From Dictyostelium discoideum (lineage: Eukaryota): a stretch of DNA of 64,000 nt. Made by a program: the position numbers and the translations under genes. The notes under the pieces are model-generated. The model was not told the DNA's origin and did not search any database. It was given only the letters and a program-made list of their open reading frames with translations. The stretch's first letter is position 1. Each line of letters starts with the position of its first letter. Below, in pieces: positions 7,141-43,078 of this stretch. The stretch spans positions 3,968,001 to 4,032,000 of the forward strand of contig CM000154.2 in the NCBI GenBank assembly GCA_000004695.1, given 5' to 3'.

Positions 7141-7208
7141 ATAAATAAAATTATTTAATAATAAAAATAAAATTAATAATATTATCTAAAAATATCTAAA
7201 AATTGATT

Positions 7209-7240
<32 letters not shown>

Positions 7241-7306
7241 TTGTGATTTTCTAAATTTTTTTTTTTTTTTTTAGATATTTTATTTTTTAAAAAAAAAACA
7301 GAAATA

Positions 7307-8386
7307 ATGAATATAAAAAAAGATACAAATATTTTATTTTTAAAAGTTTGGAGAAATATTGTAATAAGAGAAATTATTTTATATCATTTAAGATTGTTTA
7401 AAAGCAATTTTATTTTTAAAATTAATAATGTAAAAGGATTTAATAATAAAAAGAATAAATATTATGTACAAAAGATTGAAATTAATTTCAATGTTGAATT
7501 AAAAGAAGATATATTCTCAAAATACTTAAATTTAACATCTTTAAAATTTTCAAATAAATTTAATAAATCAATTGATAATTTAACATTAACAAATAATATT
7601 AAATATTTAGAATTTGGTAATTTATTTAATCAATCACTAAAACCATTGGATCAATTATTTCAACCTAATAATTCACTTGAATCAATAAAGTTTGGTAATA
7701 ATTTTAATCAAAAACTTATATTTAATAATAATATTGAAAATCAATCAATTTTATTCACCCACTTGAAAACTTTAAAATTTGGAATTTATTTTAATAAACC
7801 ACTTTTTAATATACCAAATTCAATAACACATCTTGAATTTGGTAGAGAATTTAATCAAGATTTTTCATTTTCTAGTAACAATGGTGATGGAGGTGATAGT
7901 GGTGATGGTGGTGAACAGCCAAATTTAAAATGTTTAAAATTTGTGGGTAGATATAATAAGATTTTAAAGGTTGGTCAACTTCCATCATCATTGAAAATAC
8001 TTTATTTGTCAGATCAATTTAATTTGAAATTATTTAAAGGTATGTTACCAGAAGGTCTTGAAGAATTATATTTCCAATCAAGTTATAATCAAGAATTAAA
8101 ACCAAATGAATCAATACCATCAACTGTAAAATTAATAAAATTATCATATTCATTTAATCAAGAATTATCAGTAGGTGTTTTCCCACCAAATATTGAAACT
8201 ATTATATTTGGTGAATTATTTTCAAAACCAATTAAAATAGGTATTATACCAGAGAGTGTTAAATATTTAAAATTACCAAAATTTTATAAAACATATTTAA
8301 CATACTTACCTCAACCACCAGCCATTAGTGAACTTTATTCAATTCCACCAAATTCTTATAAAAATTTATCATTTTATGAAAATTAA
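7307..8386 (+). CDS. FNIP-repeat-containing protein, 359 aa, single exon
   Basis: Repeated ~22-aa units with LxFGxxFNQxL and an explicit FNIP motif (KPLFNIPNSITHLEFGREFNQ). This is a dictyostelid-expanded family. Confidence 0.75.
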   Translation: MNIKKDTNILFLKVWRNIVIREIILYHLRLFKSNFIFKINNVKGFNNKKNKYYVQKIEINFNVELKEDIFSKYLNLTSLKFSNKFNKSIDNLTLTNNIKYLEFGNLFNQSLKPLDQLFQPNNSLESIKFGNNFNQKLIFNNNIENQSILFTHLKTLKFGIYFNKPLFNIPNSITHLEFGREFNQDFSFSSNNGDGGDSGDGGEQPNLKCLKFVGRYNKILKVGQLPSSLKILYLSDQFNLKLFKGMLPEGLEELYFQSSYNQELKPNESIPSTVKLIKLSYSFNQELSVGVFPPNIETIIFGELFSKPIKIGIIPESVKYLKLPKFYKTYLTYLPQPPAISELYSIPPNSYKNLSFYEN

Positions 8387-8415
8387 TTAATTAATTAATT
8401 ATAATAATAATAGCG

Positions 8416-8448
<33 letters not shown>

Positions 8449-8952
8449 TTCTATTAATAAATAATATTTTCACATTCTATTGATAAAAACATTCAAATCT
8501 GACACACTTAATTTTATTTATTTAAGTATATAAAAATAGAGCACCATCCATAAACCTTTTCACCAAATTTGTATGTTTTAAACCCCAGGTTTCCTCAAAA
8601 ATTAATTTAAACTATTTTTTTTTGATTTTTTTTAATTTTTTAATTTTTTTTTAATTTTTTTTTTTTTTTTACAAAATTTTATTTTTTTAATTTTTTAATT
8701 TTTTTTTTTTATTTTGTCGAATCATTACATATGTGGTCAATTCACATATACTCTATTGCCATACTATTTAATTTTATTATTAATAAACCATCTATATAAC
8801 CAATAATAATATAATAGTAAAAATATACTAAATAGTTATCTAATAATTTATAAATTTCACTAAAAAAATAAAAAATAAAAAATAAAATAAAAAACAAAAA
8901 AAAAAAAACTAAAACACTAAAACACTAAAACACTAAAACTTTTAAAAAAAAA

Positions 8953-15217
<6,265 letters not shown>

Positions 15218-19457: not shown

Positions 19458-20839
19458 ATGACAAAGAGTGTATTTGTGACAGTTGGTACAACCAAGTTTG
19501 ATGATTTAATAGATAAAATTGATTCACCAAAATTATTTAATATATTATTAAAGTATGGGTTTAACAAAATGATTATTCAAATTGGTAATTATAGTGGAAC
19601 AATTGAAAATTCATTACCATTTGATGAAAATAATAATAATAATAATAAAACAAATAGTAAAACAACAACATCAACAACAACAACAGCAAAATTTGAATCT
19701 TTATATTTTGATTATAAACCATCACTTTCTGAATTTATGAAAAATTCAGATTTAATAATTTCTCACGCAGGTAATTAATTTTATTATATATACACAATAT
19801 TTAATAATAATAGTATAATTATACTAATAGTAACTATAATTATTATTATTATTATTTAAAATAATTTTAGGATCAGGATCAATTTTAGAATCTTTAGAAA
19901 ATAACAAACCATGTATATGTGTTGTTAATGATAAATTAATGGATAATCATCAAAAAGAATTAGCAGATAAATTATCAAATCTTTCATATATTTTATCAAC
20001 TAATCCAACTTCATTATATGAAACCATTGAAACTAAATTGGATGAATATTTAAAGAATAGAATTTATTTAGATAAATCTATTCATCAAAAAGCACAACAA
20101 CAATTTGCTACATCATTATCAAATCAATTTAAATTAATAAATAATAATGAAGATGATAATACTAAAACATCATCATCATCATCAACAACAACAACAACAA
20201 CAACAACAAATTCAAAAAAGAAATTTAAAACAATGGTAGTTTTAGGATCAGGTGGTCATACAACTGAAATGTTTTATTTATTAAAAAAAGTTGATAAAAA
20301 TAAATTTAATCCAATCACTTATGTATTAGCTGATAGTGATAAAAGATCTGAAGATAAAATTAAAATTGAAGATACATCATCACCAATCATAAAGAAAATA
20401 CCAAGAAGTAGAAATGTTGGTCAATCATTTTTTAATAGTATTTTTACAACTGTATGTTTTTAATTTTATTATTAATTATTATTATTATTATTATTATTAT
20501 TATCTATTATTAATTATTATAAATTTAAATATATAGTTAATTGCATTATTTTATTCAATGTTATTAGTATTTAAAGAAAAACCAGATTGTCTTTTATGTA
20601 ATGGACCAGGTACATGTGTACCATTAGCAGTTTGTGTTTTATTATTAAGATGGTTACGTATTGGAAAAGGTTCAAAGATTATTTATATTGAAAGTTTAGC
20701 AAGAGTAAATGATTTATCATTATCTGGGAAAATATTACAACATATTTCTGATTGGTTTGTTGTTCAATGGCCTGAATTACTTAGTAAAACTGATTCAAGT
20801 AATGTATCTTGTATAAATTTATTCTTTGAAACATTTTAA
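19458..20839 (+). CDS. UDP-GlcNAc transferase, ALG13 and ALG14 domains fused in one ORF, 3 exons: join(19458..19770,19871..20451,20537..20839), ~405 aa
   Basis: Exons 1-2 give the ALG13 domain: MTKSVFVTVGTTKFDDLI...SDLIISHAG|GSGSILESLENNKPCICVVNDKLMDNHQKELADKLS (human ALG13: MKTVFVTVGTTSFDDLI...[43 protein letters not shown]). The same exon continues without a stop through a Ser/Thr-rich linker into the ALG14 domain: KKFKTMVVLGSGGHTTEMFYLL...YVLADSDKRS...IPRSRNVGQSFFNSIFTT|LIALFYSMLLVFKEKPDCLLCNGPGTCVPLAV...IIYIESLARVNDLSLSGKIL...DWFVVQWPEL. No N-terminal TM helix precedes the ALG14 domain. Introns have GTAATT and GTATGT donors and ...TTTAG and ...TATAG acceptors with phase preserved. Confidence 0.75.
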
Positions 20840-25793: not shown

Positions 25794-27319
25794 GCTTGTT
25801 GTTGTTGTTGTTGTTGTTGATTTAATTGAATTTGAACCAATATCTAAAGTTGGAATTAAACTACATTTTTTAAATAAATTAGTTAATGTTTGATTTGATA
25901 ATTTATCTAAACCACAAGATCTAATTTCAAATTCATGTAAATTTGAAAGTATATTACAAGTTGATGATGATAATAATTGAAAACCACTATCACCAATTTC
26001 TTCATTACCAGATAATTTTAATACTATTAAATTTGTTGAAGAAGAAGATAATAATAATAATGATTCAAAAATGATTTTAAATGATTGAAAAGTTAAATTA
26101 CAATAACTTAAATTTAAAGTTGTTAATGGTGAAAAAGTTAACCAATTTAAAAAGATATTTGAATCTAATTTTGAAAATCTATTAAATGAAAGATTTACAT
26201 TTTTAATATACTTTGGTTGATAATTTAATGATTTAATTGCCAATGTTAGCTTGCTAATAGTTTCTCTATTCAATGCACAATTAATTAAAGATAATTCTTC
26301 AACATTATATAACGATAGAAATATTGAAATCATTTGATCAATTGATTGAATTGATAATCTATTATTAGTGAATGAAATCGATTTAATTGTAGCTCTATTT
26401 CTAAATGATTCCAAATGAAAAGATAATGTAATTTCCAATAATGTTGATTCTTTAAAAATTTGATTATTGGTAGTGGTAGCAGTAGTATCATTTACTAAAT
26501 AATCACAACTATAACCATTAATTAATAATGAATCATCAGAGATTGAAATTGAATCGATTAGATCAGAATCTTCAAGTTGGTCATGTGAATCATCAATGAA
26601 TGAACATTTCAATTGTTTAATATTTTTCTTTTCAATTAAATCTATTAATTTATATTTCAATGGTACTTCTTTTTCATTACCAACATAGAATTTATCAACT
26701 TGAATAATTTTTTCAAATCTATTATATCCTAATAATTTAATTCTATCATTACATCTTTCTCTTAACCAATTTAAATCATATTCATTTGATTCTAATCCAA
26801 TAATTGGTATAAATAATATAATATCTAAAAATATTTTAACTTTAATAAATTTATATTTATTTAAAATTGTAGTTATTGTTATTGCTGTTGTTGTCGTTGT
26901 ATTTGATTTTTTAATTGGTGATATTAAATTATTATTATCATTGTTGTTATTGATGGTATTGTTGGTATCATCAAATACCTTATTTAAATTCTTTTTCCAA
27001 TCTTTATTTTTTTTAATTGGTACATCATTTGGAACAATAAAGTCATTAGTCCAACATGGTAATAATTCGCCATTACTATCATAATGACTTGGTGAATGAT
27101 ATTCAATTTCATTTTGATCGAAATCATCTTCAATTGAATAATTATTAGTACTACTACTATTATTATTATTTGGTGATTTCGTAGGTGATAATGGTGATGG
27201 TGATGATGTATTAAATCTTCTTTTAGTTGGTGTTGAAAGTTTTGAAGGTGTTGAAATTCTACTATTACTATTACCATTGATATTACTACTACTACTACTA
27301 TTATTATTTTTTAAAATCG

Positions 27320-27351
<32 letters not shown>

Positions 27352-30128
27352 CTATCAACAATAATTGGATCTTTAATACTTCCAGTATTTTCATAACTTT
27401 TATATTTTCTTTTTTGTTCTTCTTCTTGTTGTTCCTTTTGTAATTGTTCTAATAATGGACCTGATGAAGGATAAATTATGAAATCATCTTTATAGGAAGG
27501 TAAATCAACTGGTTTACCTGTGATTTTTGAATATTCTAAACCATCAGCACCTACTATATAACTTGAACCAACTTGAAAATGTGATCTTGTCTTTTTAGAT
27601 GATGATGATGATGATAATAATCCTCCTTCTTCAAAATTAAAATTCATTTCCCTTTTATTATTTTCATTCCTTTGAATTTGTAATAAATATTCTGTATCTA
27701 GTATTTCATTTTCAAGTTTCTCTCTTTCTTCTTTTTTATTCCTTAATTCTTCTAATATTTCTTTTCTACTTTTACCATTACCATTACTATTACTATTACC
27801 ATTACTATTACCATTACTCTTACCATTACTGTTACCATTACTATTACCATTACCATTACCATTACTATTACCATTATCAATATTATTTTTATTATTTTCT
27901 AGTATTATTGGAGATGATTTATCAATTGACATTGGTGAATTATTACCAGTTTTTAAATAATCAGCACTATTATTTAGATTATCTTCAAATGATAAATTCT
28001 CAAAAGATAAATCCTTAGTTCCATCTTTCTTTTTTGGTGAAATTTTAAATTTTGAAGATTCTGTATTATCTCTATCATCACCACCATCATCAATATAGTT
28101 AATATAATCAGTATCACAATCATAAGAGTTTTTAATATTCTTTTGAAATTGTTTTGATAGAGAGTATTTTTGTGATTGTGATAATGATAATGATTGTGAT
28201 GATGATGATAATGATAATGATAATGATGGTGATGATGATTGATAATTTTCTTGTTCTTGTTTTAATTTTTTAATTCTTTCATTTACTTTTGATTCTTTTA
28301 TTAAAGTTTCTTTATAAAATTTTGAAAAATCATCAAATTCTAAATAAACTAATAATAAATTTGAAATTGCCATTAATTTCCTTTCAAAAATTGAAATTAA
28401 TATTTGATATTCTTCTTCTTGATCTTCTCCTCCCTCTTTTTCTTTTTCAAATTGATCATTCTCTAAAATTTTAATTGCATCATTTAATAAACTAATTCTT
28501 TTTTCCTTTCTACTATCACCAAATGGTTCTAACCTTTTCAATGCATTTGAATAATTTATTTTTGCTAATGCTATTATTTGTATTATTTGTTGTTGTTGTT
28601 GTTGTTGTAATTGTAGATTATTATTATTATTATTACTGTTTTCATTTATTTTATTACTAAATTCTATTATAGATCTACTTAAACCAATTGAGATATTAAA
28701 ATATTTTTTTATTTTTAAACAATCTAAATAATTTGAATGATCTTCTAAAACTAAAAATAATTTATCATATTTTTTTAAATAAATTAATGATTTTTCATAT
28801 TCTACCCAATATTTTAATTTCTTTTCAATGAAATAAAAATATCTATTTTCATAATCATCTGGTTTCTCTTTATCTAATTGATCTAAAATCGTTTCATATA
28901 TTAAAATTAAATTTTCATGATATAGAGTTATATCTCTATTATTATTATTATTATTATTATTATCATCTTCATTTTTATTTTTATCTTTATTATTATTATT
29001 TGAATTTAAAATTGAATTTAATAATTTTTCAGATTCAATTCTATTTTTATTAATTTTAATTGAATTTTTTAAACGATTCATTTGAAAATCTAAATATGAT
29101 CTCTTTATTAAATGTGGACACTTTTCAGATTCTTTTTCAAGTTGTTTAATTGTTTCTTTAAATTCTTTATTTCTTTCATCACTATAATAGCATTCAAGTA
29201 ATAATTGATAACAATCAAATTTATCTTTATCCATTTTAGTTGTTGATGATGATCTATTAATTCTTTCATTTAAATAATAACTTGCTCCAACTGCATCATG
29301 ACATTTTAAACATAATAATCCTAAATTATAATATTGATTTCCTTCCATATCTTTTTTACATTTTTCTTCAACTAATAAAAAAAAAATAATAATAATAATA
29401 ATCATATATATATATTAATAATTAATTTTTTAATTTTTAAAATTATAATGTATAATATTATTCTTACTCTTTTTATAAAATGATAAAGCTTTTTTATATT
29501 GTTCTAAATGAATACTACAATAAATTTCATTTGATAAAAGTTCAATATTCTTTATAAAATCTTTAATGTTTTCAGATGATTGATTATCAATTTCTAAAAG
29601 TTCAACTGAATATTGATATGCTAAAACTTTTAAATACTTTATTGCTTTCCTTATTATTGTATATGGATTATTGTTTTTATTATAAATTTTATTTTTATTA
29701 TTTGTTGAAGAATCTTCATTATCTAATTTATTTAATTTATTACAATAAAATACACCAATGTCATGAAAACAATCAAATGATATTTTATAAAATTTCTTTG
29801 TTGGTGGTTGAAATGTTTTAAGTTTCGATTGAAAATGTTCAATCCTTATGATTATATCATTTTCATTTAATATGTCAATACCAAATAGCATATTGGTATT
29901 AAATACACCAATTAAAATACCTAAAATATCATATAATGTACTCTCTTTGATATCATTATCATTATTATTATTGTTTTTATTATTATAGTCACTACCAACA
30001 CTATTATATATTTTATTTATAATTTCCCATCCTTTTCTATATTCATCTCTAGTTTTCTTTTTTTTTTCAAATCCACCTTTTTCTGATAATTTTGCTGATT
30101 TTAATATATTTGATAATTGTACTTCCAT
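25062..30128 (-). CDS. Large leucine-rich-repeat (RNI-like) protein with N-terminal helical/TPR-like region, coiled coils and poly-N/Q/S tracts, 2 exons: complement(join(25062..29371,29468..30128)), ~1680 aa
   Basis: Exon 1 (MEVQLSNILKSAKLSEKGG...YKKALSFYKK) ends at a GTAAGA donor in phase 1. A TTATTAG acceptor gives ...IEEKCKKDMEGNQYYNLGLLCLKCH... The C-terminal half has LRRs of the ribonuclease-inhibitor type: NLSFNRFSKLDSNIFLNWL...LNLSYCNLTFQSFKII...LKLSGNEEIGDSGFQLL...LHEFEIRSCGLDKLSNQTL...LDIGSNSI. Confidence 0.6.
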
Positions 30129-30560
30129 TTTAAAAAATGGTCAATTTATTATTTATTATAATAAAAAAAAAAAAAAAAAAATAGAAAACTTCTTGTTTAT
30201 TTATTAATTATTTATTTATTTTATTTATTTATTTATTTTATTTATTTATTTATTGTTTATTTGTTTGTAAAAAAAAAGAAAATAAAAAAAAAAAAAAAAA
30301 AATAATAAACTTCTTGCTTTTTTTGAAAATTAATTTTTTTTTATTTTTCAATTTTTTTTTTAAAAAAAAAAAGGAGGGAAAATTTTTTAGATATTTTAAT
30401 TGTTTCTATGAATATAACAATTAAAAACAACTTTACAAAATAAGAAATCTAATAAATATATATATTTGAATAATTAAATAATTATATAAATAAAAGGTTG
30501 AATAATAATTGTGATTCTAAGCATTATTTAATCTTGATAAAATTTTTGAATGGGCTATTA
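30105..30560. repeat. Copy 1 of a ~440-bp duplicated segment (promoter plus first ~25 nt of the gene at 30128)
   Basis: About 90% identical to 33035..33470 (...ccattt(t)aaaaaatggtYaatttattat...aaaatagaaaacttcttgtttatttat...aaggagg(g)aaaatttttt(t)agatattttaatt...ataaataaaaggttgaaYaataattgtgattctaagcattatttaatcttgataaaattttt). A third 45-bp copy sits at 35634..35680. Confidence 0.8.
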
Positions 30561-31028
30561 GTATATGTAATTAATTTAAACTTAATTTAGGTCATCAGAA
30601 ACTACATATAATGAAATCATGTTCACCTCAACCCACACCTACAATTTGGTACAATGCAAATATGTGTTAAGGTCAAAAAAAAAAAAAAAAAAGTTTTATT
30701 AATAAAAAAAAGTTTTATTATTAAAATTTTCTATTAAAAAAAAAAAAAAAAAAAAAAAAATTTAATAAATAATAAAAATTAATAATGCCTTACAGAAGGA
30801 ATTTGTTTTAAATTTTGTATCCCTTTCTATTTTAATTTCAAAAAAAAAAAAATAGATATCAATGGTTGCACTCTAAAAAATAGAAATATATAAAAAAAAA
30901 TTATAATAATAAAAAAAAGAGTTTGAAATAAATAAAATTAAAATAAGCACCAAAAAAGATTATAATTTTAGCTTTTTTTCTCTTATTTCGAAAAAAATAA
31001 ATTAGGAAATTCCCTTAGACACATTTCA

Positions 31029-31078
<50 letters not shown>

Positions 31079-31435
31079 AATGGATAAAATTATTTATATA
31101 TTATTCTCCATTTTTAACTCTTGAGAGTGCTATCCGGACTATTAGTGCTAATAAAAGCCCTTCTAAGGGATGGTCGACCTTGCCATTATGTGTAGCCAAT
31201 CAAATAATGAAGCATCAAACCCTACTTTTTTTTTTCTTTTTTTTTTTGCTTTTCACTTTTTTTTTTATTTCACCCATGTAATAAAAATTAATTTCTAAAT
31301 ATGGATTGATTGATTCTTTAGAAATGTAAAAAAATTAAAATGTTTGAAATAAGCATCAAAAAAATAAAAAAGTGTTTAACCACTTCCCAAAAAAAAAATA
31401 AATTGGGTAATTCCCTTTGACACATTTTATATTTT

Positions 31436-31468
<33 letters not shown>

Positions 31469-31559
31469 TTTATAAACAAAAATTTAATTTAGTTCAAAAA
31501 ATTATTCTATATTATTTTAATAATTCAAATAATAATTTTATCTGTTTTACAAAAAAAAT

Positions 31560-31932
31560 GAATAAATCAAATAATGAAATATCAAACCCACAATAAGGAA
31601 GCTCAAATGATTCTAATGTTAATTCATCAAATGGTGGTTCAAGTAGTCCAAATTTTTTTATAGTTTATAAAGATGGTATTCAATACAAATTTCACAATTC
31701 ATCAACTTCGAAAGATGTTCTCAACTTTTTTGGATTAGAAAATGGTTATCTACAAACTCAACTTGGCCATCAAAAAGTTATTAATGCTAATCCAAATTAT
31801 TTACCAACATCTGGTACTTTTCATGTTGTTGAACAATCTTCAAAATTTTTATTTTTCAAAATCGCTGTATTAATAATTTCAATTAACTTTATAATTCAAA
31901 TTATATATTATTCAATTAAAATTTTAAAATAA
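31560..31932 (+). pseudogene. Disrupted small ORF (one in-frame TAA at codon 13) encoding a ubiquitin-like N-terminus plus C-terminal hydrophobic tail; likely pseudogene or gene with sequence error
   Basis: MNKSNNEISNPQ*GSSNDSNVNSSNGGSSSPNFFIVYKDGIQYKFHNSSTSKDVLNFFGLENGY...SKFLFFKIAVLIISINFIIQIIYYSIKILK. The frame is otherwise open for 123 codons. Its first ~25 nt are duplicated at 31197..31222. Confidence 0.3.
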
Positions 31933-33034
31933 TTATATAATAAATAAAACTTTTTTTATAATTTTAGTTTTTGATTTATTTTTATTTTTTAGTAATTTTT
32001 TTTTTTTTTTTTTTTTTCTTTTTTTTTTTTCTTTCTTTTTTTTTTTTTTTATTTTTTTTAATTTTTTTTTTTTCTTTACCTTTTTTTTTTTTTCGATCAT
32101 ATAGAAATAAAAAATAAAAATTAAAAGAATTATAACCATATCAAACCCATACCAAAATTTATGTTTACAAAATCAAATTTTAAATTCACACCATAATAAC
32201 TCAACAATAATAATAAATATTGATAATGGTGATTGCAATTTAGATTGTTCATGATTTTTTACAATAAATAACTTTAATAATATTTCATTCTTACCTAAAT
32301 AATCAAATAATAATAATAATAATAAAATTATAGAAATTATTTAAGAATAGATAACTCTAATGTTAAATTCGATGGATCAATAATAATAATAAACACATTT
32401 GAAATACTAATAATTAGTAATAGTGAAATATCATTCAATAATGGAGCAGTATTTTATCTTGAAGGCTTTCTTGAAAGAAAAGAAACATGTTCAAAGATTA
32501 AATTTTCAACTCAACCATCATAGTGTATTTGATCTAATGGTATAAATTCAGATTCTAGGATACTTGAATTACGAAATCTTTCAATAGAAAATATATCTTT
32601 AATTATAAATTATCATACAGATGATAGTAGCAGTAGTAAAGAAAAAAAAAAGTAAAGTAAAAAAAGTACGGTAGAGAATTCAAAGATTTTAAATTTCATT
32701 TCAGATAGTGATATGATTAATAACTCATATCATTCTACTATTATATTTAAGTATCAACCAAGTTAATTGATCAATACCAAACAACCATCTATCAATTTCA
32801 ATTTGAAAATAATCAATTTTCAAGTTATTTAATTTTTTCAAAAAAAAAAATTCCACCGTTAATCTCTTCAATAAAAAGATACTAAAAAAATCAAGGTGGT
32901 GATAGTTCAACTCTTTTTATGTTTAATGCTTCAAATATCATTGTAAATTATTGTCAATCCTCTTTTAATAATTAGCTTCAGTAAATGTTTTGAAACTGGT
33001 CAAACTATCAATATATTTTTCTGTTAATTATCAA

Positions 33035-33177
33035 ATATTTGATAATTGTACAATTCCATTTAAAAAATGGTTAATTTATTATATAAAAAAAAAAAAAATA
33101 GAAAACTTCTTGTTTATTTATTTGTTTATTTATTTACTTATTTATTTATTATTTATTCATTTGTTTGTGAAAAAAAG

Positions 33178-33209
<32 letters not shown>

Positions 33210-33470
33210 AACTTTTTGTTTGTTTGTGAAAACTAATATTTTTTATTTTTCTCAATTCTTTTTTTTTAAAAAAAAAAAGGAGGAAAATTTTTTTGGATAT
33301 TTTAATTCTGTATGAATATAACAAGTAAAAACAACTGTACAAAATAAGAAATCTAATAAATATATATTTGAATAATTAAATAATTATATAAATAAAAGGT
33401 TGAACAATAATTGTGATTCTAAGCATTATTTAATCTTGATAAAATTTTTGTATGGGCTATCACTATTTTT
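33035..33470. repeat. Copy 2 of the ~440-bp duplicated segment, carrying a decayed copy of the 30128 gene start
   Basis: Contains ATGGAATTGTACAATTATCAAATAT on the minus strand, against ATGGAAGTACAATTATCAAATAT at the real gene start, followed immediately by a stop. The rest is collinear with 30129..30560. Confidence 0.8.
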
Positions 33471-33561
33471 TCTTTTAAAGAATTTCTTCACTTTTATAAA
33501 ACTTTTTTTAATTCTATTTAGAAACAAAAAAAAAAAAAAAAAAAATTAGTCTGAAATTCAA

Positions 33562-33769
33562 TTAAAATAATATAATAAATAAATTTAAAAATTTTAATAA
33601 ATACCCTTTAGCAACCATTTGAAAGAAAAAATGTATCATTTTAATAATGGGATAGCTTTGAATTTGTCTATTTTTTTTATAATCTTCATCAGATTCATTA
33701 CTACCATTTGTATTTAAATTATTGTCACTATTATTAATACCAATATTATTACTATTATTATTTATATTA

Positions 33770-33816
<47 letters not shown>

Positions 33817-34521
33817 TGAAGATGATGATAATGATAGAGGTGAAGAGGATAAAGAAGAACTTGTGGAAGGTGTAGTTTTACCAACAAGTGCAGTTGAATC
33901 ATATGATCTTAAAACTCTAATTTCTTTTTCTCTCTCTTCAACTTTTTGTTCCAAATGTGAAATTTTATCTTTCATTTTTTGGCAATAACATTCAACCTCT
34001 AAATGATATGTAATATCTTGTTCAGTCTTTCCACTATAAAAACAACCAAACTCTTTATTTGGACAATATCTATTACAAAAGAATAAAGTTGTACTTGATT
34101 CCCATAATGCATTATTATCAAAATCTTCATTATTTATATTATTATTATTATTATTATTTATATTATTGTTATTAATATTATTATTAATATTTGGTGATGG
34201 TGGTTGTTGTGATGGTGAAATATTTTCAAATGATGGTGATTTTGAAGAATTGAAAGATGTATTTGATTTTGGTGATGAAAATGAATCACCTGATGATTTC
34301 ATTTCATAGAAATCTTGATATGATAGTGTTGGTGATGATTTATCATTACTATGATCACTAATAACACCATGACTATTAAATTTGCATTGTCTTTCATGTG
34401 CCAATTTTGATCCATAGCTAATTAAACAATTACATCCATTTACTTTGGTTGTAATTTCACCATTATTTGGGTTTTCTTCAACACCATATTGACAATAACA
34501 TAATAATTGGTCAAACTCATC

Positions 34522-34555
<34 letters not shown>

Positions 34556-34869
34556 AATTTAAAAAAAAAAAAAAAATAAATTACAAAATTAATATTTTAT
34601 ATTTTATAATTATTTTATTTCAAATTTTATTAAAATTGATAATAATAAAAATAATAATAATAATTTTTACCTTTTAATTGTTCATTAATAGAAATATTTG
34701 TTAAAGGAAAATTATCAATTGGACAATGTGTTAATGTTTCAACACAAAATGAACAAAAACAATGTAAACAAGTACTATTTTCAAATGGTACATCCATTAA
34801 TCCGCCATGATATGAACATAAAAATTTATCTTCTGGGTTGATTACAAATAATGTTTTAGAAACTTCCAT
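33562..34869 (-). CDS. TRAF-type zinc-finger / RING-finger protein with coiled coil and poly-N/S tracts, 2 exons: complement(join(33562..34520,34681..34869))
   Basis: Exon 1 holds a RING-like motif: MEVSKTLFVINPEDKFLCSYHGGLMDVPFENSTCLHCFCSFCVETLTHCPIDNFPL (compare TRAF6 CPIC...TPCGHRFCKACI...HKCPVD). The donor after ...NEQLK-G is GTAAAA, the acceptor is AAAAAG, and the join gives ...DEFDQLLCYCQYG...CNCLISYGSKLAHERQCKF. A second TRAF zinc finger is FFCNRYCPNKEFGCFYSGKTEQDITYHLEVECYCQ, followed by the coiled coil KISHLEQKVEEREKEIRVL. Confidence 0.6.
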
Positions 34870-35689
34870 TTTAATTTTTAAATTATTATTATTATTATTT
34901 TTTTTTTAAAACAAATAATTTTTTTTTATAATAATTTTGTTAATTATATTTTTATTTTTATTATTATTATTGTATTAATTTATAAAGTGTTTGTTTTTAA
35001 TACCATAAAAAAATAAAAATTAAATAATTAAAAAATTAAAAAATTAAAAAAAAAATTTATTAATAAATTTTTTTTTTTTTTTTTTTACTATTTTTGAAGT
35101 TGTTAATATAAATTAGGGAATAATTTTTAATAATTTATTTTTTTTATTAAATTTTTTTTAATTTTTTCTTTTTCTTTTTTTTCTTTTTTTTGAAATTACA
35201 AATTCTTTGATTGATCATATATTTTTAGCATCAAGTACACATTTATTGATATGTAAGTGTGTGTTAGTGTGTTTTTTTGAAATTGATTCATACAAAATTT
35301 ATCTGGGTGGGGTGTTTTTTTTATTTTTGGACAAAAGTAATAATAATAATAAAAATAAATGGGGTTGTTTTCATAAATCATTTCAGTTAAAATTAATTTT
35401 TTATAATTTTTTTTTATACCCATTGAATTATTTTTTTATTTTTTAATTACTTTTTTAAATATTATCTATTTAAATAATTTTTTTTTTTTTTTAAATTAAT
35501 TTTTTTTTTCATTAATTAATAAAACTTATTTTGAATTGAATGAATTTAATTTTTTATTTTCATTTCTTTTTTTATTTTTTTTGTTTCTTTTTATTTGATA
35601 TTACCTGTTTTATGAATTGTTAAAAAAGTAATAACCATGGTTAATTTATTATTATATAAAAAAAATAGAAAACTTCTGGTTATTTTCTA

Positions 35690-37430
35690 CATCAAAAGGA
35701 AATATTCGATTATTGCCATATCTCGATTATTCAATATTTTTTTTTTTTTTTTTGAATTGGATAACGCAATTATTATTTGCTTCTCCTTGAGATGCTAGAT
35801 CTCATTTTATTTTATTTTTTTTTTTTTTTTTACAGGGTCTCTAAAAGAGGGGTTAGTTTACTTTTTTTTTTTTTTTTTTTTTTTTGTTTCGAATTTTGAA
35901 TTGTATTATTACTTTTGATTAAAACATCTTTTTTGTCCAAACTTTTTTCTAAATCTTTTTTTATTTTATCGTCTGGTTCGTGATTGATGTTTATGACGTA
36001 TTTGAATTGTTTTTTTTTTAATTGAGTTTTATCCACAATTTCGCTTATTTTTTGTAGGCATTTGTGTTGCTTAATATTTGTGGTGTTGTTTGTGATTTTC
36101 ATTTTATTTTCTTTCTATTTTTTATATTTAGACAAAAAAGATGTTTTAATCAAAAGTAATAATACATTCAAAATTCTCACAGACAGTATTAGTACAGTAA
36201 TCTATTTTGTAAATATGTTCGATGCAGAATTAAAAGGACAATTTATAACCACTCTAAGACCAAAAAATATGTATACGGATTTCGATTGGTATAAATCACT
36301 CACAGAAATAGAATGGGTAATAGAAAATGAAGGATGTAAACTAATTAAATCTGAAATTAAAGGCGAAACTCTAATTATCAAAACAGTGAAAAGAGTCGTA
36401 GAAGAATATGACACTATCATTGAACTAGACAATCTAACATTAATTGGTCACTCCAACAAAGGATGGAGAGATCAAACCTCATTACCAGAAAATCAAGAAG
36501 AAAACAAAAATAAAAAACAATCAGATGAACAACAACCAAAATCTACATCAGAACAAATACCAAAACAAGGAAAAAGAACAATCATTATCCCACCAATCAC
36601 CTCCTCATCTAATGATAAAACATTTATGGCCCTAGATGATACAGCTCAAAAGGTAATAGATGCATCACTAGAAAACGTAGATGAACTAACAAGAATAGAG
36701 AATGAGATCAATACCCAATCGATAAAAAATCAAGAAATTAAAACAAAATCAGAAAAACCTATTGAACCACCATCTCCATACAATACACCAATAAAACAAC
36801 ACGGCGAAACAAAGAGACTAACAACGGAAGAAAAACTTAGAGAGGTAAATGATATCTTCGACTTCACCAGCCCAAACACTGATGCAATAAGAAAAATAGA
36901 ATTCCCACTTTCAATCCCTTCAAATCAATGGTTCTTCTCCTCTCCAATAAAACATATCATGAGTTTCAGCCCAACCTATGGTACACCATCGAAAATTATC
37001 GATTCACCAAGTAAATTGTTAAACACACCAAAAAACAAACAACAAGACAAAACAAACAGGACCAACAAAACACCAGTCAAACCAAAATTGGGTGAATATG
37101 GACAAAAAAGCATAAAAACAAAAATGGATGAAGATATAGACAACTTCAACAAGGAAATTCTAAAACAAATCAGTAAATCAAAAAACCCCACAAACACACA
37201 AGACCAACAACACAACGAACAAAGTAAAGATCAGTTAGAAGACAAAATAAACCAGAAACTTCAAAAGGTAGATAAAAATCTACCCCAAATAAAACTATAA
37301 AGAAAAACACAATAAGAATAGGTGTTTGGAACGTCCAAGGATCCAACACCATCCAATCTGCCAGCATAATAAACACCGTATTAGACAACAACAAGCTGGA
37401 CGCAGCACTTCTAACTGAAACAAATAAAAC
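35690..37430 (+). mobile_element. TRE5-type (tRNA-upstream) non-LTR retrotransposon, 3'-truncated: 5' modules, intact ORF1 (36215..37300) and the first ~43 codons of ORF2 (37300..37430)
   Basis: ORF1 (MFDAELKGQFITTLRPKNMYTDFDWYKSLTEIEW...QKLQKVDKNLPQIKL) is a hydrophilic, basic protein of ~361 aa. The composition is lower in A+T than host genes. Directly after its stop comes the ORF2 start KNTIRIGVWNVQGSNTIQSASIINTVLDNNKLDAALLTETNK, the AP-endonuclease opening motif of L1-like elements (xxWNxxGxx...LQETH). The element stops about 48 bp before tRNA-Asp, the hallmark TRE5 integration distance. A 31-bp inverted repeat lies in the 5' region (35908..35940 against 36130..36160). Confidence 0.6.
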
Positions 37431-37477
37431 GATTATTCAATATTGTTATTTCTAATTATTAAAAACTTTCACATCAT

Positions 37478-37549
37478 TCCTTGTTGGTCTAGTGGTGAGG
37501 ATTTTCGCCTGTCACGCGAAAGGCCCGGGTTCAATTCCCGGACAGGGAG
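37478..37549 (+). tRNA. tRNA-Asp(GUC)
   Basis: TCCTTGTTGGTCTAGTGGTGAGGATTTTCGCCTGTCACGCGAAAGGCCCGGGTTCAATTCCCGGACAGGGAG is near-identical in architecture to eukaryotic tRNA-Asp-GTC. The anticodon loop is CTGTCAC. A T6 pol III terminator follows, and an ex-B box AATCGCAGGTTCGACTC sits at 37573..37589. Confidence 0.9.
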
Positions 37550-37572
37550 TTTTTTAAGATTCCAAAAAATAA

Positions 37573-37589
37573 AATCGCAGGTTCGACTC
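37573..37589 (+). promoter_or_regulatory. External B-box (ex-B) downstream of tRNA-Asp
   Basis: The sequence AATCGCAGGTTCGACTC sits just beyond the tRNA's T6 terminator. It has the same extended sequence and spacing as the ex-B box behind tRNA-Ala at 19021..19037. Confidence 0.65.
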
Positions 37590-37639
37590 TTGTTTAAGAC
37601 TATATTGATAATAATAAATAAAGGAAAAAAAAACCGTAC

Positions 37640-39407
37640 CGCGATCAAGAGGATACAAGATACACGTGAAAAGTAATTCATCCTTTTCTATCTTTAATCT
37701 CGGTCAATTTTAACCAATCTTTCAAAAAAAATCACCAATCCACCACGATCTACAGATCTAACTTACCAAATCGCCGATTCAAAGGAATCCCATCGAGATG
37801 AATTCCTACGCAGACGCGGCTAAAATGGCCAACCCCTCCACCCATATGGACGAGGCATCGGAGAACTTCATTAAGGAATTCTCCACAAAAACAGCAGAGA
37901 TAAAGGAGACCTACCCCAAACTATCAATAGGCCTCAAAGACATCTCCAAATACTGCGAGACCATATTGAACATGACTGCGCTCTCAACCTATGAGAAGAA
38001 CAACGGATTCTACCCAATTACTCGAATTCCCCAAAATGGATCTCAAGGGGTTAGAAGAAATGNNNNNNNNNNNNNNNNNNNNNNNNNNNNNNNNNNNNNN
38101 NNNNNNNNNNNNNNNNNNNNNNNNNNNNNNNNNNNNNNNNNNNNNNNNNNNNNNNNNNNNNNTTTACAAATGCATAAATCTGCAAATAATTCAATATACA
38201 TAATAAGTTGGATGGATCAAATCATCAACAAATCAATCTCTTCTCCATACCTTATAAAAATCAAAAAAGAATGGGAAAATTATGCAACTCAAATTGGACA
38301 TCTAAAAGATAAAGTTCAAATCCTACAACCAATATTAATAAAAAATCAAACCTCTCAAACATTAAACACAAATAATATTCCACTACCACCAACACTCAAA
38401 GAAATCTACTCGACAATACTCAACAATCACCAATGTAAATCAAAAGACTATATTGGCAAGAAATATTCAGATCTACTTCTTACTTCGCACCAACAATCAA
38501 TACAACTATTACGGAAATACACATACCACCAACTATTTGTCAAAATTCAAAAATTAAAAGATCCATAAGGCCGTGATACAATGCAAAGATTCCATGCTAG
38601 ATGTTTTCCGATTAATCATCTACACAACAAAGTTTGCCCCATTTGCAACAATGAAATGAATAATGATCCCTATGGTCATTTGTTTTTCAATTGTCAGCAC
38701 ACAATCAACTTCATAAACCACGACAAATTAAAATATTTTATATATAAAAATTGCAATGGAAACAAAAACTGGTCACTAACAAAAAACCAAACAATAAAAT
38801 TATTCACACTCATTTATAAACCACAAACAAACAACAAAGCATTTAAACCAGATCCAACTATCAATATTAATTTTCATTTTGCAGAAAACGCACAATATAA
38901 AAAATACAGGTTCAACTAGAATTATATAAACACAAATCTTGATCTAGTCAGAACACATGCATATTAGAACATAATCTCATTTGTTATTCACCAAATATGG
39001 ATATGGTTATGCAAATCATTATTTGGCATCAATATAACTCAATCAATTGACAATTGGAACAACTAAATAAACAACACAACACTAGATTATGATATATTAA
39101 AATCAAAATGACACAAGCTAATAAGATTGGAATATTCAAGAACATTATCAAACTTTAACCAATACTCAATTAAAAACAACCTCACAAAAACTCAAAAAGA
39201 AACCCAATGGTCTGAAACCATCAAAAAATTTAAAAAAGAATGGAGCATAAACACAAATGAACCAATTCCAACAATTACACCACCAATTAATTATTAATTA
39301 CCTAATCTAAAATAACATACCATTTTAAATTCACAAAAACTAAAAAACCTAAAATAAATAAATAAAAATAACATACTAATTGTATACTACAATAGTTTAT
39401 TTATATC

Positions 39408-39434
<27 letters not shown>
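37640..39434 (+). mobile_element. TRE3-type (tRNA-downstream) non-LTR retrotransposon with a 100-N assembly gap (38063..38162), ending in A28
   Basis: Begins about 90 bp after the tRNA-Asp 3' end. Composition is unlike host genes (roughly 60% A+T, CG dinucleotides present). The 5' ORF MNSYADAAKMANPSTHMDEASENFIKEFSTKTAEIKETYPKL... is interrupted by the N-gap. Past the gap there is a Cys/His-rich ORF MQRFHARCFPINHLHNKVCPICNNEMNNDPYGHLFFNCQH, typical of a non-LTR ORF2 C-terminal zinc knuckle. An untranslated 3' region follows, then poly(A) at 39407..39434. Confidence 0.55.
38063..38162. other. Assembly gap (100 N) inside the TRE3-like element
   Basis: A run of exactly 100 N. A conventional gap placeholder of this size usually means the true length is unknown. 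Confidence 0.95.
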
Positions 39435-39439
<5 letters not shown>

Positions 39440-40027
39440 TATTAGAATATCTATTTATAATTAAACAATAAAGATAATAAATTACACGATATTTTAATTA
39501 TGTAAAAATGTATTAATGATTAAATTTTATTTTAAAATTTTTATTTTTCGACATTTTTCGTTTTTACAAAAACAACGAAAAATGCGCGATTTACAACGTA
39601 TAGAATACGTTTCATTATTATTATTAAATTATTATTTATTATTATTATTATTATTATTTATTATTTATTATTTATTATTATTATTTATTATTTATTATTA
39701 CTATTTATTATTATTATTGATTATTATAAAATCTAATATTCATTACACAAGGTTTCAATTCTTTTTAAACTAAACTTCAGAATTCAATCTCCATAATTTA
39801 CTATTTTTTATCTTAAACTGTTTAAAATTGATCTAATTCAAAAAAAAATAATATAAAAATAAAATATGAGGAAGGATAATGAGGTTAATATAAACTACCT
39901 AAATCTTAGATCCCACATAAAATACGTTCAATGGGATATTAACATTCAATTAAAATAATACATTGAATTTTATTTTTATTTTGATTGTGTGTTTATTATT
40001 ATGTGATGTGGTGATTGTGAAAAGATT

Positions 40028-40104
<77 letters not shown>

Positions 40105-40115
40105 TTAAAATAAAT

Positions 40116-43078
40116 TTAAAGGAAGAATAATTTATCAGATAATTGAGGCGCAGCATCAGCGAAAACTGTTCTACCAATTAAAAATGCCATTTTGTGTGCA
40201 AATTGACAAGTTGCTGGAACACGAACTATAAATTTTAAATTTTAAAGTATTAATATATATATATCAAAATAAAGATTATTTATATTATTTAAATTTAATA
40301 TTAAAATATTAATAATTACCAGATTTTTCAAAGTTGAAATAAAGATGACACATTTGGAAAGTAAATAATTGAAATAAATCAGCAGGCATTTTTTGTTCAT
40401 CCAATAAAACGTGATAATGAGTTGGATTGACAGAACCATTGTTAGTTACTTGAGAGACTAAAAAGAAATCATACCAATTTGGATGGGTAATTTTTGAGTC
40501 AACCAAAGTACCAGCTGGAGGATTACCAATTGGATCAGCAGTAAATAAACGTGCATTTGTATTCTTTTTGACAATGACATACATTAACTTTGGTTTTATA
40601 CCCCAAGAAGATGGTGTTTCAGCAAAACCTTTTTTCATTGCAGCAATTTCAGATCTATTGACAAGATCTAACATACCATCACCAACACCATCACGATAAA
40701 CTATAACCAATTCTGGTAAACAATTATTGAAACTAAAATATTTTGACATTGCTTCTTTAGTTGCTTCTTCAAGAGAATCAATGATTTCTTTACCAGGACG
40801 CTTTTGAACAAAAGATCTTGAGAAATACTTTTGAAATTTATCATCGATAGTTGCAACGAATCCAACTACTGAATGACCTCTCATATCAGAGTTATGACCA
40901 ACATCGATACCAATGATCATTGTTTTCTTTGGAATGACACCATTGAATATTTGTTGATTGAGACCCCATGGTGCATAACCTAACTTTGCAATTACTTGTT
41001 GTTTTAATTTATTGGTTACTGATCTACCTTTATAAAAAGTCCTTGGGAAAATACATTGAGTTAAAACTTTAAATTGAACCAATGATTTTCTCTTTATCTC
41101 TTTATAGATTTCTGGTTGATTTTGTGGAATTAACATTAAAAAGAATTGAATACCATGTGTTTTAATTGCATTCTCCATGATATTAGAGTATTGAATTGGT
41201 CTTTTATCGCGTGGGTCTGTATAACAAATTGTTGTTGGTTGTGACATTCCAGTTTCATTTATGAAATTATAAAGATTGGTTTGGCAATCTCTTGTTCTCT
41301 CATATTCATCACGATCAACAACAAATGCCCATTTAATATTATTCAATTGACGTTTATTATCATTTGGTAAATTCTTTGGTGCACTTAAAACATAACCATC
41401 AACTTTTAAAGCTGGTTGATATGTAATTCCCCATGGTTCTAATGATTTTGAAACTTTTGGATTATTATTAATATCTGAAATAAAATTACTCAATGTTTGA
41501 TATCTTTGACTTGGATCAAAATTTGAATGTTTTGCTAATTCAGCCATAAGTTTAAAATTTTTACGCATCTAAATAATAGTATTTATATTAATATGTTTAA
41601 ATTAATTAATAAGAATAAAAAATAAAAAGAACAAACTTACATGATCACTTAATCCAGTTAAAAATGTTAATTCTGGAATTAAAAAGATAGTTTGTTTAAT
41701 ACCTCTGAATTTAACTTCAGATTTTAATAATGGTTGACGATAATCTGTAATTTTATGATTTGGATAATTTCTTTGATAATATTGTAAAAATGTTGTTGTA
41801 CCATCCATTTTATCATTAACTCCACTTGACCAAGAAATATTAGAGATACGATAGGTTTTATTATTATAACGAGTTAATACAATTGAATTTATAATTTCAT
41901 CAAAACATCTATCTTTGTCATATCTAAGGTATTTAATTCTATCTAATACAGTTTCAGATCTAACAACTTTTGAACTTGTATCTGCTAATAACATTGTACC
42001 AGATTCTGTTGAAACTACAGATGTACTAAAACCTTTCCAAACTTCAAGTAAATAATCTTCAAATTTAATTTTATTTATTGGTGAATAGTAATTTCTACCA
42101 ATAAGTGAAAATCCCATTTTTCTCATATTCTATATTTATAATAAAAAAAAAAAAAAATAAAAAATTATTAATTATTAAATTTAAAAGAAATAAAAAATAA
42201 AAAAACAAAAAAAATAAACTTACATTTTTTGTAATAATATTAAAAAATTGAGAATTAACAGATGATTTATCCCTATGGTTAACTTCTTTTACTTTTCTAA
42301 TAAATATTTGAACACCATCAATTGATTGTGAATTAATATTGATATTAATCGGAGAATATAAAATTGAATCACCATCATAGAAATAAAATTCTTTTGATAT
42401 GTTATTTAATGAAAGTAATTCTCTAATTAATTTACGTCTCTTGTCAAAAGTAACTTGTGGTGGATTAAAATCAATACGAAATTCTAGTGATTTCCTATCT
42501 GAAATAACAATTGGAAAGAAATTTGAAATTAAAGAAATTTGTTTACCTTGAACAGTTCTTGATTTTGCTGTAACAATTGCAACATTTTCAATGTCAGAAT
42601 CTTTAACCATATCTCTTCTTGAAATTCTTGGAACTAATAGATTTGTATTTGTTGTATTTGTTGTTGTAGTTGTTGTAGTTGTTGTTGTTGTTGTTGTTTC
42701 AGGTGTTTGAGGTTGTGTGATTGGTTTTACTTCTTGAAATTGTTCTTCAAGTGGGATACTGTTATTTTGTTTTCCCCAAGCATTTTGAGTTTGTCTTGGT
42801 TGGAAATATTGTTGTGGTTGTTGTGGTTGTTGTAGTTGTTGTTTTTGTTGTTGTGGTTGTTGTGGTTGTTGTGGTTGTTGTGGTTGTTGTTTTTGTTGTT
42901 GTTTTTGTTGTTGTTTTTTTTGTTGTGGTTGTTGTGGTTGTTGTTTTTGTTGTTGTTGCGGTGGTTGTTGTTGATAATTATTATTATTGGTTCTTTGTTT
43001 CAATGGTGATTGACTTCTATCAATTTCTTGATGAGATTTTGGTTCACCATTGAATCCTTTTTGTTTTTTTGGGATCAT
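40116..43078 (-). CDS. Argonaute/Piwi-family protein (PAZ + PIWI), 4 exons: complement(join(40116..40225,40320..41568,41641..42129,42224..43078)), ~900 aa, poly-Q/poly-T N-terminus
   Basis: PAZ region ...ISNISWSSGVNDKMDGTTTFLQYYQRNYPNHKITDYRQPLLKSEV. PIWI domain with the catalytic residues ...MIIGIDVGHNS...LPELVIVYRDGVGDGMLDLV...NPTHYHVLLDEQ. A final 110-nt exon (GTAATT donor, TTTATAG acceptor) encodes VRVPATCQFAHKMAFLIGRTVFADAAPQLSDKLFFL*, which matches the Piwi C-terminus [21 protein letters not shown]...NRLYYL. All junctions conserve phase and the exon lengths sum to a multiple of 3. Confidence 0.8.

Follow-up and report, generated by a model that had tools for sequence, protein, structure and literature searches.

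A TRE5-A.1 insertion with an inverted front part and a lost middle upstream of a Dictyostelium discoideum tRNA-Asp gene

Results

A TRE5-A copy with its front part flipped lies upstream of tRNA-Asp

We analyzed a 64-kb stretch of Dictyostelium discoideum DNA (hereafter the window; 23% GC, with proteins matching D. discoideum at 96–99%) and focused on a copy of the retrotransposon TRE5-A inserted upstream of a tRNA-Asp gene. Positions 35739–37429 of the window are a TRE5-A.1 element whose front part is flipped and whose middle is lost. Most likely, the part bearing the open reading frames (ORFs) was flipped during insertion itself. The original prediction, made from the letters of the sequence, had placed a TRE5-type element at the textbook site upstream of the tRNA gene, and alignment to known copies confirmed the site and identified the family as TRE5-A.

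TRE5-A.1 (DRE) is an autonomous, tRNA gene-targeted non-long-terminal-repeat retrotransposon of the L1 clade. As references, we took intact copies from assembly GCA_054883475.1, using copy L005 for the main coordinates. Loci L002 and L014 on chromosome CM142511.1 of that assembly represent the same locus as the window and carry no N in the region. Locus L016 of assembly GCA_054859355.1, labelled D. discoideum and showing ~90% nucleotide identity, provided a divergent comparison. The ORF1 of L001 (D. cf. discoideum), 64% identical, was too distant to serve as a reference. The canonical element is laid out in L005 as follows.

6207–6905: A-modules
6880–7211: 5′ B-module
7001–8335: ORF1
11775–12107: 3′ B-module, a duplicate of 6880–7211 (block of 333 bp)
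to ~12257: C-module and poly(A)

According to the TRE5-A orientation rule, the element turns its 5′ end toward the tRNA gene's 5′ end and the tail is distal (PMC3159450, PMC5391098), and the primary integration site is position 47 upstream of the tRNA gene (PMC5391098). All intact TRE5-A.1 copies that we examined in GCA_054883475.1 stood head-to-head with their own tRNA gene, as in the literature. Across seven canonical TRE5-A copies, the target-site duplication (TSD) was 13–18 bp long and started 30–35 bp upstream of the tRNA, the tRNA-proximal junction lay at 45–49 bp, and A-tails measured 11–27 nt. The corresponding features of the insert and its target, in window coordinates, are given below.

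35724–35738: left TSD copy, CGATTATTCAATATT, an exact 15-bp repeat
35739–35755, minus strand: oligo(A) tail (T17 on the plus strand), distal to the tRNA and directly after the C-module end GAATTGGATAACGC, as in canonical copies
35756–35890, minus strand: complete C-module of TRE5-A.1 (end of the 3′ untranslated region), in canonical orientation, colinear match
35891–36129, minus strand: part of the 3′ B-module, positions ~95–333 of the 333-bp block
36127–36129: inversion junction, TTT common to both segments (3-nt microhomology), from overlapping alignments
36127–37426, plus strand: inverted TRE5-A.1 segment, canonical L005 7162–8461
37427–37429, plus strand: three extra A residues at the tRNA-proximal junction, not colinear with 14 of 14 canonical D. 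discoideum copies
37430–37444: right TSD copy, CGATTATTCAATATT, positions −47 to −33 relative to tRNA-Asp
37477–37550, plus strand: tRNA-Asp(GTC), the target gene, called by ARAGORN and also present at the orthologous site of both L014 and L016
37580–37590, plus strand: external B-box-like (ex-B) motif GGTTCGACTCT, by direct reading, 30 bp downstream of tRNA-Asp

ARAGORN returned tRNA-Asp(GTC) as the single tRNA gene in the window, and the ex-B-like motif behind it (the ex-B box concept is described in PMC5911963) is kept as GGTTCGATTCT in the divergent strain. The 15-mer CGATTATTCAATATT occurs twice in the window, compared with zero copies expected by chance, and delimits an insert of 1,691 bp whose right end lies 47 bp upstream of tRNA-Asp. 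With its 15-bp TSD at −33 to −47 and its 17-nt tail both within the canonical range, the geometry of the insert is fully canonical. An upstream element ending ~48 bp before the tRNA had been predicted, in good agreement with the end of the TRE5-A-derived insert at 37429; the proposed start at 35690 had to be moved to 35739, the position set by the TSD.

Two fragments in opposite orientations make up the insert

Two alignments cover the insert. Window positions 35737–36129 correspond to L005 12257–11869, reversed, with 99% identity, and positions 36127–37429 correspond to L005 7162–8464, forward, with 99.7% identity. Within a minus-strand ORF at 35830–36102, the 3′ B-module piece in the former contains an ORF1 start copy (MKITNN...); accordingly, the ORF1 N-terminus MKITNNTTN..., which is missing from the plus-strand ORF, is encoded on the minus strand at 36102–35891. 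Directly after the TTT of the inversion junction, base 36130 is A, compared with G in canonical copies. The inverted segment contains the last part of the 5′ B-module, codons 55–444 of ORF1, and the opening ~50 codons of the ORF2 frame. Its plus-strand ORF1 runs from a first ATG at 36215 to a stop at 37298–37300, and the 361-aa product shares 99% identity with the 444-aa TRE5-A ORF1 proteins of D. discoideum, whose N-terminus it lacks. The ORF2 frame, −1 relative to ORF1, is open from 37276, encodes the APE/endonuclease N-terminus RIGVWNVQGS...LLTETN, and is cut after ~43–50 codons directly at the target site.

These alignments upheld much of what the original prediction had read from the plus strand, namely that ORF1 and the start of ORF2 read toward the tRNA, that the ORF2 start rather than a C-module abuts the target site, and that ORF2 is cut off after ~43 codons. 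The "5′ modules" reported to read toward the tRNA proved to be something else, since 35739–36126 holds, on the opposite strand, part of the 3′ B-module, the C-module, and A17. The expectation of a 3′ module with an A-tail beside the tRNA was likewise the wrong way round, as the T17 at 35739–35755 is distal, as it is in canonical copies.

At the tRNA-proximal breakpoint, canonical copies read ...ACAAATATAAAAAC, whereas the window reads ...ACAAATAAAA followed, past the breakpoint, by CGATT. We considered that some canonical copies might lack a 12-nt repeat at this position, which would remove the extra A residues; all 14 have the repeat. Read on the sense strand of the element (the minus strand of the window), the insert therefore consists of a TSD, the reverse complement of 7162–8461 with the three A residues, the stretch from 11869 to A17, and a TSD. 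The end of the B-module is present in both fragments and forms an inverted repeat of ~50 nt (35891–35941 and 36127–36176). A search of the 64-kb window for additional TRE5 or TRE3 copies returned none and turned up only this repeat.

Missing from the insert are the A-modules, the first 955 bp, in which the 5′ B-module begins, and 3,404 bp of ORF2; canonical positions 8462–11868 are absent, and ORF1 codons 1–54 are missing from the 5′ copy. No match to the A-module promoter (L005 6207–6879) was found anywhere in the insert, and instead of an ORF2 with APE, reverse transcriptase (RT), and zinc-finger domains, only ~50 ORF2-frame codons are present. Lacking both a promoter module and an RT, the copy can no longer act as a retrotransposon. 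Compared with canonical TRE5-A.1, to which it is 99–99.9% identical over both fragments, the insert thus retains B- and C-modules, oligo(A), the 47-bp site, a 15-bp TSD, and a distal tail; it differs in that the fragment with ORF1 and the ORF2 start is inverted, the A-modules, ORF1 codons 1–54, and 3.4 kb of ORF2 are missing, and the copy is non-autonomous. With respect to the orientation rule, the fragment carrying poly(A), C-module, and B-module follows it, and the ORF1-bearing fragment stands opposite.

The source is TRE5-A.1 rather than TRE5-A.2

Over its 1300 nt, the inverted fragment differed from many TRE5-A.1 copies at one position and from TRE5-A.2 copies at 20. One mismatch in 1300 nt indicates that the source was an A.1-type RNA and that the insertion is recent and has changed little since. 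TRE5-A.2, a non-autonomous element of the structure AB-ORF1-BC, resembles the insert in keeping ORF1 and lacking most of ORF2, and if it were the source the internal deletion would shrink to only ~270 nt. This candidate was ruled out by the deletion junction, the BC deletion, and single-nucleotide differences. TRE5-A.2 copies (L003, L004, L015) have a colinear join of 8572 to 11706, whereas the insert has breakpoints at 8461 and 11869 together with an inversion. In addition, TRE5-A.2 carries a BC-module deletion of ~70 bp joining 12085 to 12155 (given as 72 bp in PMC3159450), whereas the 3′ fragment of the insert aligns to the A.1 BC-module with no such gap. The two also differ in size, at ~1.7 kb for the insert versus ~2.6 kb for TRE5-A.2. 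The original prediction had offered an internally deleted TRE5 variant or a rearrangement; the copy is indeed both internally deleted and rearranged, and it is distinct from the known deletion variant TRE5-A.2 by junction, BC deletion, and mismatches. Separately, another 361-aa ORF1 annotation (P0034, in L015) was examined as a possible second inverted copy and turned out to be an ordinary 5′-truncated TRE5-A.2.

A second assembly and an empty site frame the insertion

Comparison of GCA_054883475.1 with window positions 26181–38062 (11.9 kb) revealed no mismatch and 6 short indels, which were counted but not viewed one by one; the matching stretch includes both TSDs and the inversion junction. 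Because the identical structure is present in an independent, gap-free assembly, it is not an assembly collapse, and that part of the original prediction is refuted for the TRE5 region.

In the divergent strain, L016 contains the orthologous RING-finger gene (named from its D. purpureum homolog), tRNA-Asp, and the ex-B box, and there is no insert between the RING-finger gene and tRNA-Asp; this is the empty site, although the target 15-mer itself has diverged. Within L016 6600–9036, tRNA-Asp and a tRNA-Ala lie 2.3 kb apart, and the TRE insertions of the window are absent, the exception being a small C-module-like fragment upstream of tRNA-Ala. The absence of these insertions from L016 indicates that all three large elements at the locus are lineage-specific.

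Twin priming as a proposed explanation of the rearrangement

We judge it about an even bet that the insert is one young TRE5-A.1 insertion produced by a single aberrant target-primed reverse transcription (TPRT) event resembling the twin priming of L1. Twin-primed L1 insertions have an intact TSD around fragments in opposite orientations, a normal poly(A) fragment, and an inverted piece derived from the 5′ side of the RNA (PMC2837659). The features of the insert match this definition, which makes a single aberrant TPRT event the best explanation. The exact 15-bp TSD, not expected by chance, brackets both fragments; both map to one element in opposite orientations, and the poly(A) fragment is in the canonical head-to-head arrangement. 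Moreover, the inverted fragment (canonical 7162–8461) lies 5′ in the RNA of the non-inverted one (11869 to the end). The internal junction shows the TTT microhomology at 36127–36129, which at 3 nt is weak evidence.

From this anatomy we infer the order of events and the priming mechanism. Synthesis of a first complementary DNA (cDNA) would have begun at the tRNA-distal nick, with priming on the poly(A) tail, and would have covered only the last ~390 nt of the RNA, which hold the C-module and part of the 3′ B-module. The other, tRNA-proximal side of the staggered break would have primed a second cDNA, on the same RNA or on a different TRE5-A.1 RNA; this cDNA would have set out from an A-rich site ~130 nt inside the ORF2 region and proceeded 1.3 kb toward the RNA 5′ end before stopping in the 5′ B-module. 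Joining of the two cDNA 3′ ends at the TTT/AAA microhomology would then yield, on the sense strand, a TSD, the inverted part (ORF2 start and ORF1 back to codon 55), the 3′ B-module, C-module, and A17, and a TSD. No cDNA would have been made of the A-modules, of ORF1 codons 1–54, or of 3.4 kb of ORF2.

Human L1 insertions explained by the twin-priming model of Ostertag and Kazazian (PMC2837659) share with the insert TSDs around opposite fragments, poly(A) on the 3′ fragment, an inverted part that originates closer to the RNA 5′ end, a deletion inside the element, and microhomology where the two fragments meet. The insert differs from them in occurring in Amoebozoa and in a tRNA-targeted family, in its very large deletion of 3.4 kb, and in a junction between target and inverted part that has three extra nucleotides and no microhomology.

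Several of these points weigh against twin priming. At the tRNA-proximal junction, target end and element share no microhomology, and three extra A residues stand there instead; judging from the sequence, this junction resembles a priming site less than it does a normal 5′ joining end. Another such point is the 3.4-kb deletion that separates the fragments, since at the inversion point classical twin priming of L1 usually deletes or duplicates only short stretches. Twin-priming variants in which the first cDNA stops early are nevertheless described (PMC2837659). Our literature search found nothing on twin priming or 5′ inversions in Dictyostelium TRE elements, and nothing relevant on inverted TRE5-A copies or a "TRE5-A.3".

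Alternative origins of the inverted fragment

The 3.4-kb deletion and the tRNA-proximal junction lacking microhomology keep two rivals of twin priming alive, a template switch and a rearranged master copy. The former, which we consider possible but clearly on the unlikely side, posits a single continuous first-strand cDNA within one TPRT event. After ~390 nt of sense RNA, the RT would have jumped at TTT onto an antisense TRE5-A template, either the abundant C-module-driven minus-strand RNA or cDNA, copied 1.3 kb, and stopped; the end would have been joined to the tRNA-proximal target end with three non-templated A residues, like an ordinary 5′ junction. The predicted final anatomy is identical to that of twin priming, and the two are not separable by sequence alone. 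A template switch fits the tRNA-proximal junction, with its three extra nucleotides and no microhomology, better than a priming site does, and non-templated nucleotides are reported to be frequent at TRE5-A 5′ junctions (PMC5391098). Considerable antisense RNA is reported for TRE5-A (PMC3159450, PMC4559204), and the 3.4-kb "deletion" would need no special explanation. However, we found no evidence for switching onto antisense RNA in the TRE5-A family or in others.

Alternatively, the inversion may be older and may have arisen at another locus, so that the present copy would be an ordinary 5′-truncated product of a master RNA that keeps the C-module needed for mobilisation in trans. The tRNA-proximal junction does resemble a normal 5′ truncation with extra nucleotides, and the C-module, essential for retrotransposition (PMC3159450), is intact in the insert. 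Nonetheless, we regard this origin as improbable. The ~20 TRE5-A copies in the compared loci include no second one with the inversion junction TTTCTATTTTTTATATTTAGACAAAAAAGATG, the 361-aa product is on record at this single place only, and such a master would be devoid of the A-module promoter. Furthermore, 1 mismatch in 1300 nt to active A.1 elements leaves little time for two successive events.

Rearrangement of the DNA after a normal TRE5-A.1 insertion, by an inversion and two deletions, is similarly unlikely. Although transposable element loci of Dictyostelium are reported to be frequently rearranged in genome evolution (PMC5391098) and tandem arrays, apparently B-module-mediated, occur at L008 and L009, one breakpoint would have to fall exactly at the boundary between element and TSD, leaving the 15-bp TSD intact, and three separate changes would have to affect an element with 1 mismatch in 1300 nt. 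Nor does the canonical element contain inverted homology that could drive an inversion, because its two B-modules are direct repeats. An assembly artefact, with repeat reads collapsed or wrongly joined in the reference, might be suspected in a repeat-rich region with a 100-N gap 630 bp away, but it is extremely improbable given that GCA_054883475.1 reproduces the locus with both TSDs and the junction and that a mis-join is not expected to give a perfect TSD.

As a separate observation, the arrays at L008 and L009 (GCA_054883475.1, CM142511.1, ~3.02–3.04 Mb) are tandem TRE5-A arrays with ORF1-ORF2 units every ~4,890 bp. This period equals the distance from the 5′ to the 3′ B-module, which suggests that the arrays arose from recombination between B-modules.

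The N gap downstream of tRNA-Asp hides a second tRNA gene

Downstream of tRNA-Asp, the window contains parts of two TRE3-type elements, which we labelled TRE3-X and TRE3-Y for this analysis.

37618–37626: left TSD copy ATAAAGGAA of TRE3-X; the right copy lies outside the window, in the hidden part
37627–38062, plus strand: 5′ end of TRE3-X (CCGTACCGCG starts at 37634), ~430 bp before the gap, 100% identical to L014
38063–38162: 100-N assembly gap, standing for at least 9.2 kb
38163–39434, plus strand: 3′ end and poly(A) of TRE3-Y, an element separate from the one starting at ~37630

TRE3-X starts ~77–84 bp after the end of tRNA-Asp, past the ex-B box and in the same orientation as the tRNA. 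Its position and orientation agree with the TRE3 rule, by which elements insert 40–150 bp downstream of a tRNA gene and are transcribed in the same direction as that gene (PMC5911963). The complete copy in L014 is ~5.25 kb long, with an ORF1 of 351 aa, an RT-containing ORF2 of 1059 aa, poly(A), and the TSD ATAAAGGAA; it ends in ...A30-TAAAGGAA-CACAATT. TRE3-X thus resembles known TRE3 elements in site, orientation, ORF1, RT-containing ORF2, poly(A), and TSD. A second TRE3-X copy, in L010, is placed likewise behind tRNA-Val.

The original prediction was right in placing tRNA-Asp between an upstream TRE5-type and a downstream TRE3-type element, as the ARAGORN call, the TRE5-A insert, and the TRE3 start all agree. 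It was also right that the downstream element begins beyond the ex-B box, the predicted distance of ~90 bp comparing with the observed 77–84 bp. It had, however, treated 37640–39434 as a single element with a small hole, and this did not hold. L014 11849–21086 runs on without reaching the post-gap sequence of the window, and contains, in order, the rest of TRE3-X, ~3.4 kb of other sequence, a 5′-truncated TRE5-A, tRNA-Ala(AGC), and a TRE3-Y-like 5′ end. The second, different TRE3 in L014 begins 70 bp behind tRNA-Ala(AGC), and L016 also has tRNA-Ala between both flanks. The TRE3-Y piece shows only 69% identity to TRE3-X over 172 bp, and the 5′ ends of the two differ. The same piece is 97% identical to L005 5897–4881, and the 5′ end of that copy matches the L014 element behind tRNA-Ala. 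The TSD TAAAGGAA was absent after 39434. Since the gap hides at least 9 kb including the tRNA-Ala gene, what had been read as one TRE3 is two unrelated elements, of two TRE3 families, associated with two tRNA genes. Our attempt to bridge the gap from the right side yielded only short Logan contigs matching a 530-aa ORF and no record for a 112-aa TRE3 ORF.

Further features were observed in and around this cluster. TRE3-Y has an in-frame stop at 38566–38568, between the end of the RT ORF and a C-terminal zinc-finger-like CPICNN...H...C motif, indicating that this copy is degenerate. In L014, the 5′-truncated TRE5-A-like fragment occupies 20093–20659, is 92% identical to A.1, and ends only ~15 bp upstream of tRNA-Ala (20674–20746) versus the canonical ~47 bp. 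A diverged intergenic repeat, ...ATTATTATAAAATNNAATATTCATTACAC..., lies beside the tRNA/TRE cluster at window positions 39438–39745, L014 16831–16926, and L016 7681–8223; in L016 it forms an inverted duplication, which complicates alignment of the right flank. Further downstream, at window positions 40309–43078 on the minus strand, three exon-like ORFs make up a PAZ/Piwi Argonaute-like gene, and an unbroken run of ~71 T residues (40030–40100) lies just upstream of this gene region. Its best matches were 79% (D. cf. discoideum) and 73% (D. citrinum); the database search returned no identical D. discoideum protein, and in the reference the gene may lack annotation or be a pseudogene.

Discussion

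The C-module, which is required for retrotransposition, is reported to be a weak antisense promoter (PMC3159450). In the insert it points into ORF1 codons 55–444 in the sense direction, a stretch annotated as a 361-aa gene in GCA_054883475.1; any effect of this arrangement is a prediction from sequence. A C-module transcript is predicted to fold into a perfect 50-bp stem formed by the two B-module pieces, with a 185-nt loop and a folding-energy z-score of −9.4. If the promoter acted in this way, its transcript could give an N-terminally truncated ORF1 protein, or the hairpin could supply Dicer with substrates that target the B-module and ORF1 start of TRE5-A. Were either to be the case, the locus would be a small regulator of TRE5-A. 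That the insert is both the first documented product of a twin-priming-type event (or an antisense template switch) in a Dictyostelium TRE and an accidental TRE5-A regulator locus is a far-fetched combination, and we mention it as a speculation.

For users of the reference sequence, the locus carries a warning. Annotation across 38063–38162 fuses unrelated elements, and this gap hides the larger part of two TRE3 elements as well as a tRNA-Ala gene.

In summary, the insert is a new TRE5-A example of a well-known insertion defect of long interspersed nuclear elements, of an ordinary kind and newly seen in the TRE5-A family. The apparent breach of the TRE5-A orientation rule is most likely resolved: the poly(A) end follows the rule, and the ORF-bearing part was probably flipped during insertion. 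Moreover, our results suggest that the aberrant TPRT outcomes familiar from mammalian L1, namely 5′ inversion combined with internal deletion, also occur in an amoebozoan tRNA-targeted element of the L1 clade.

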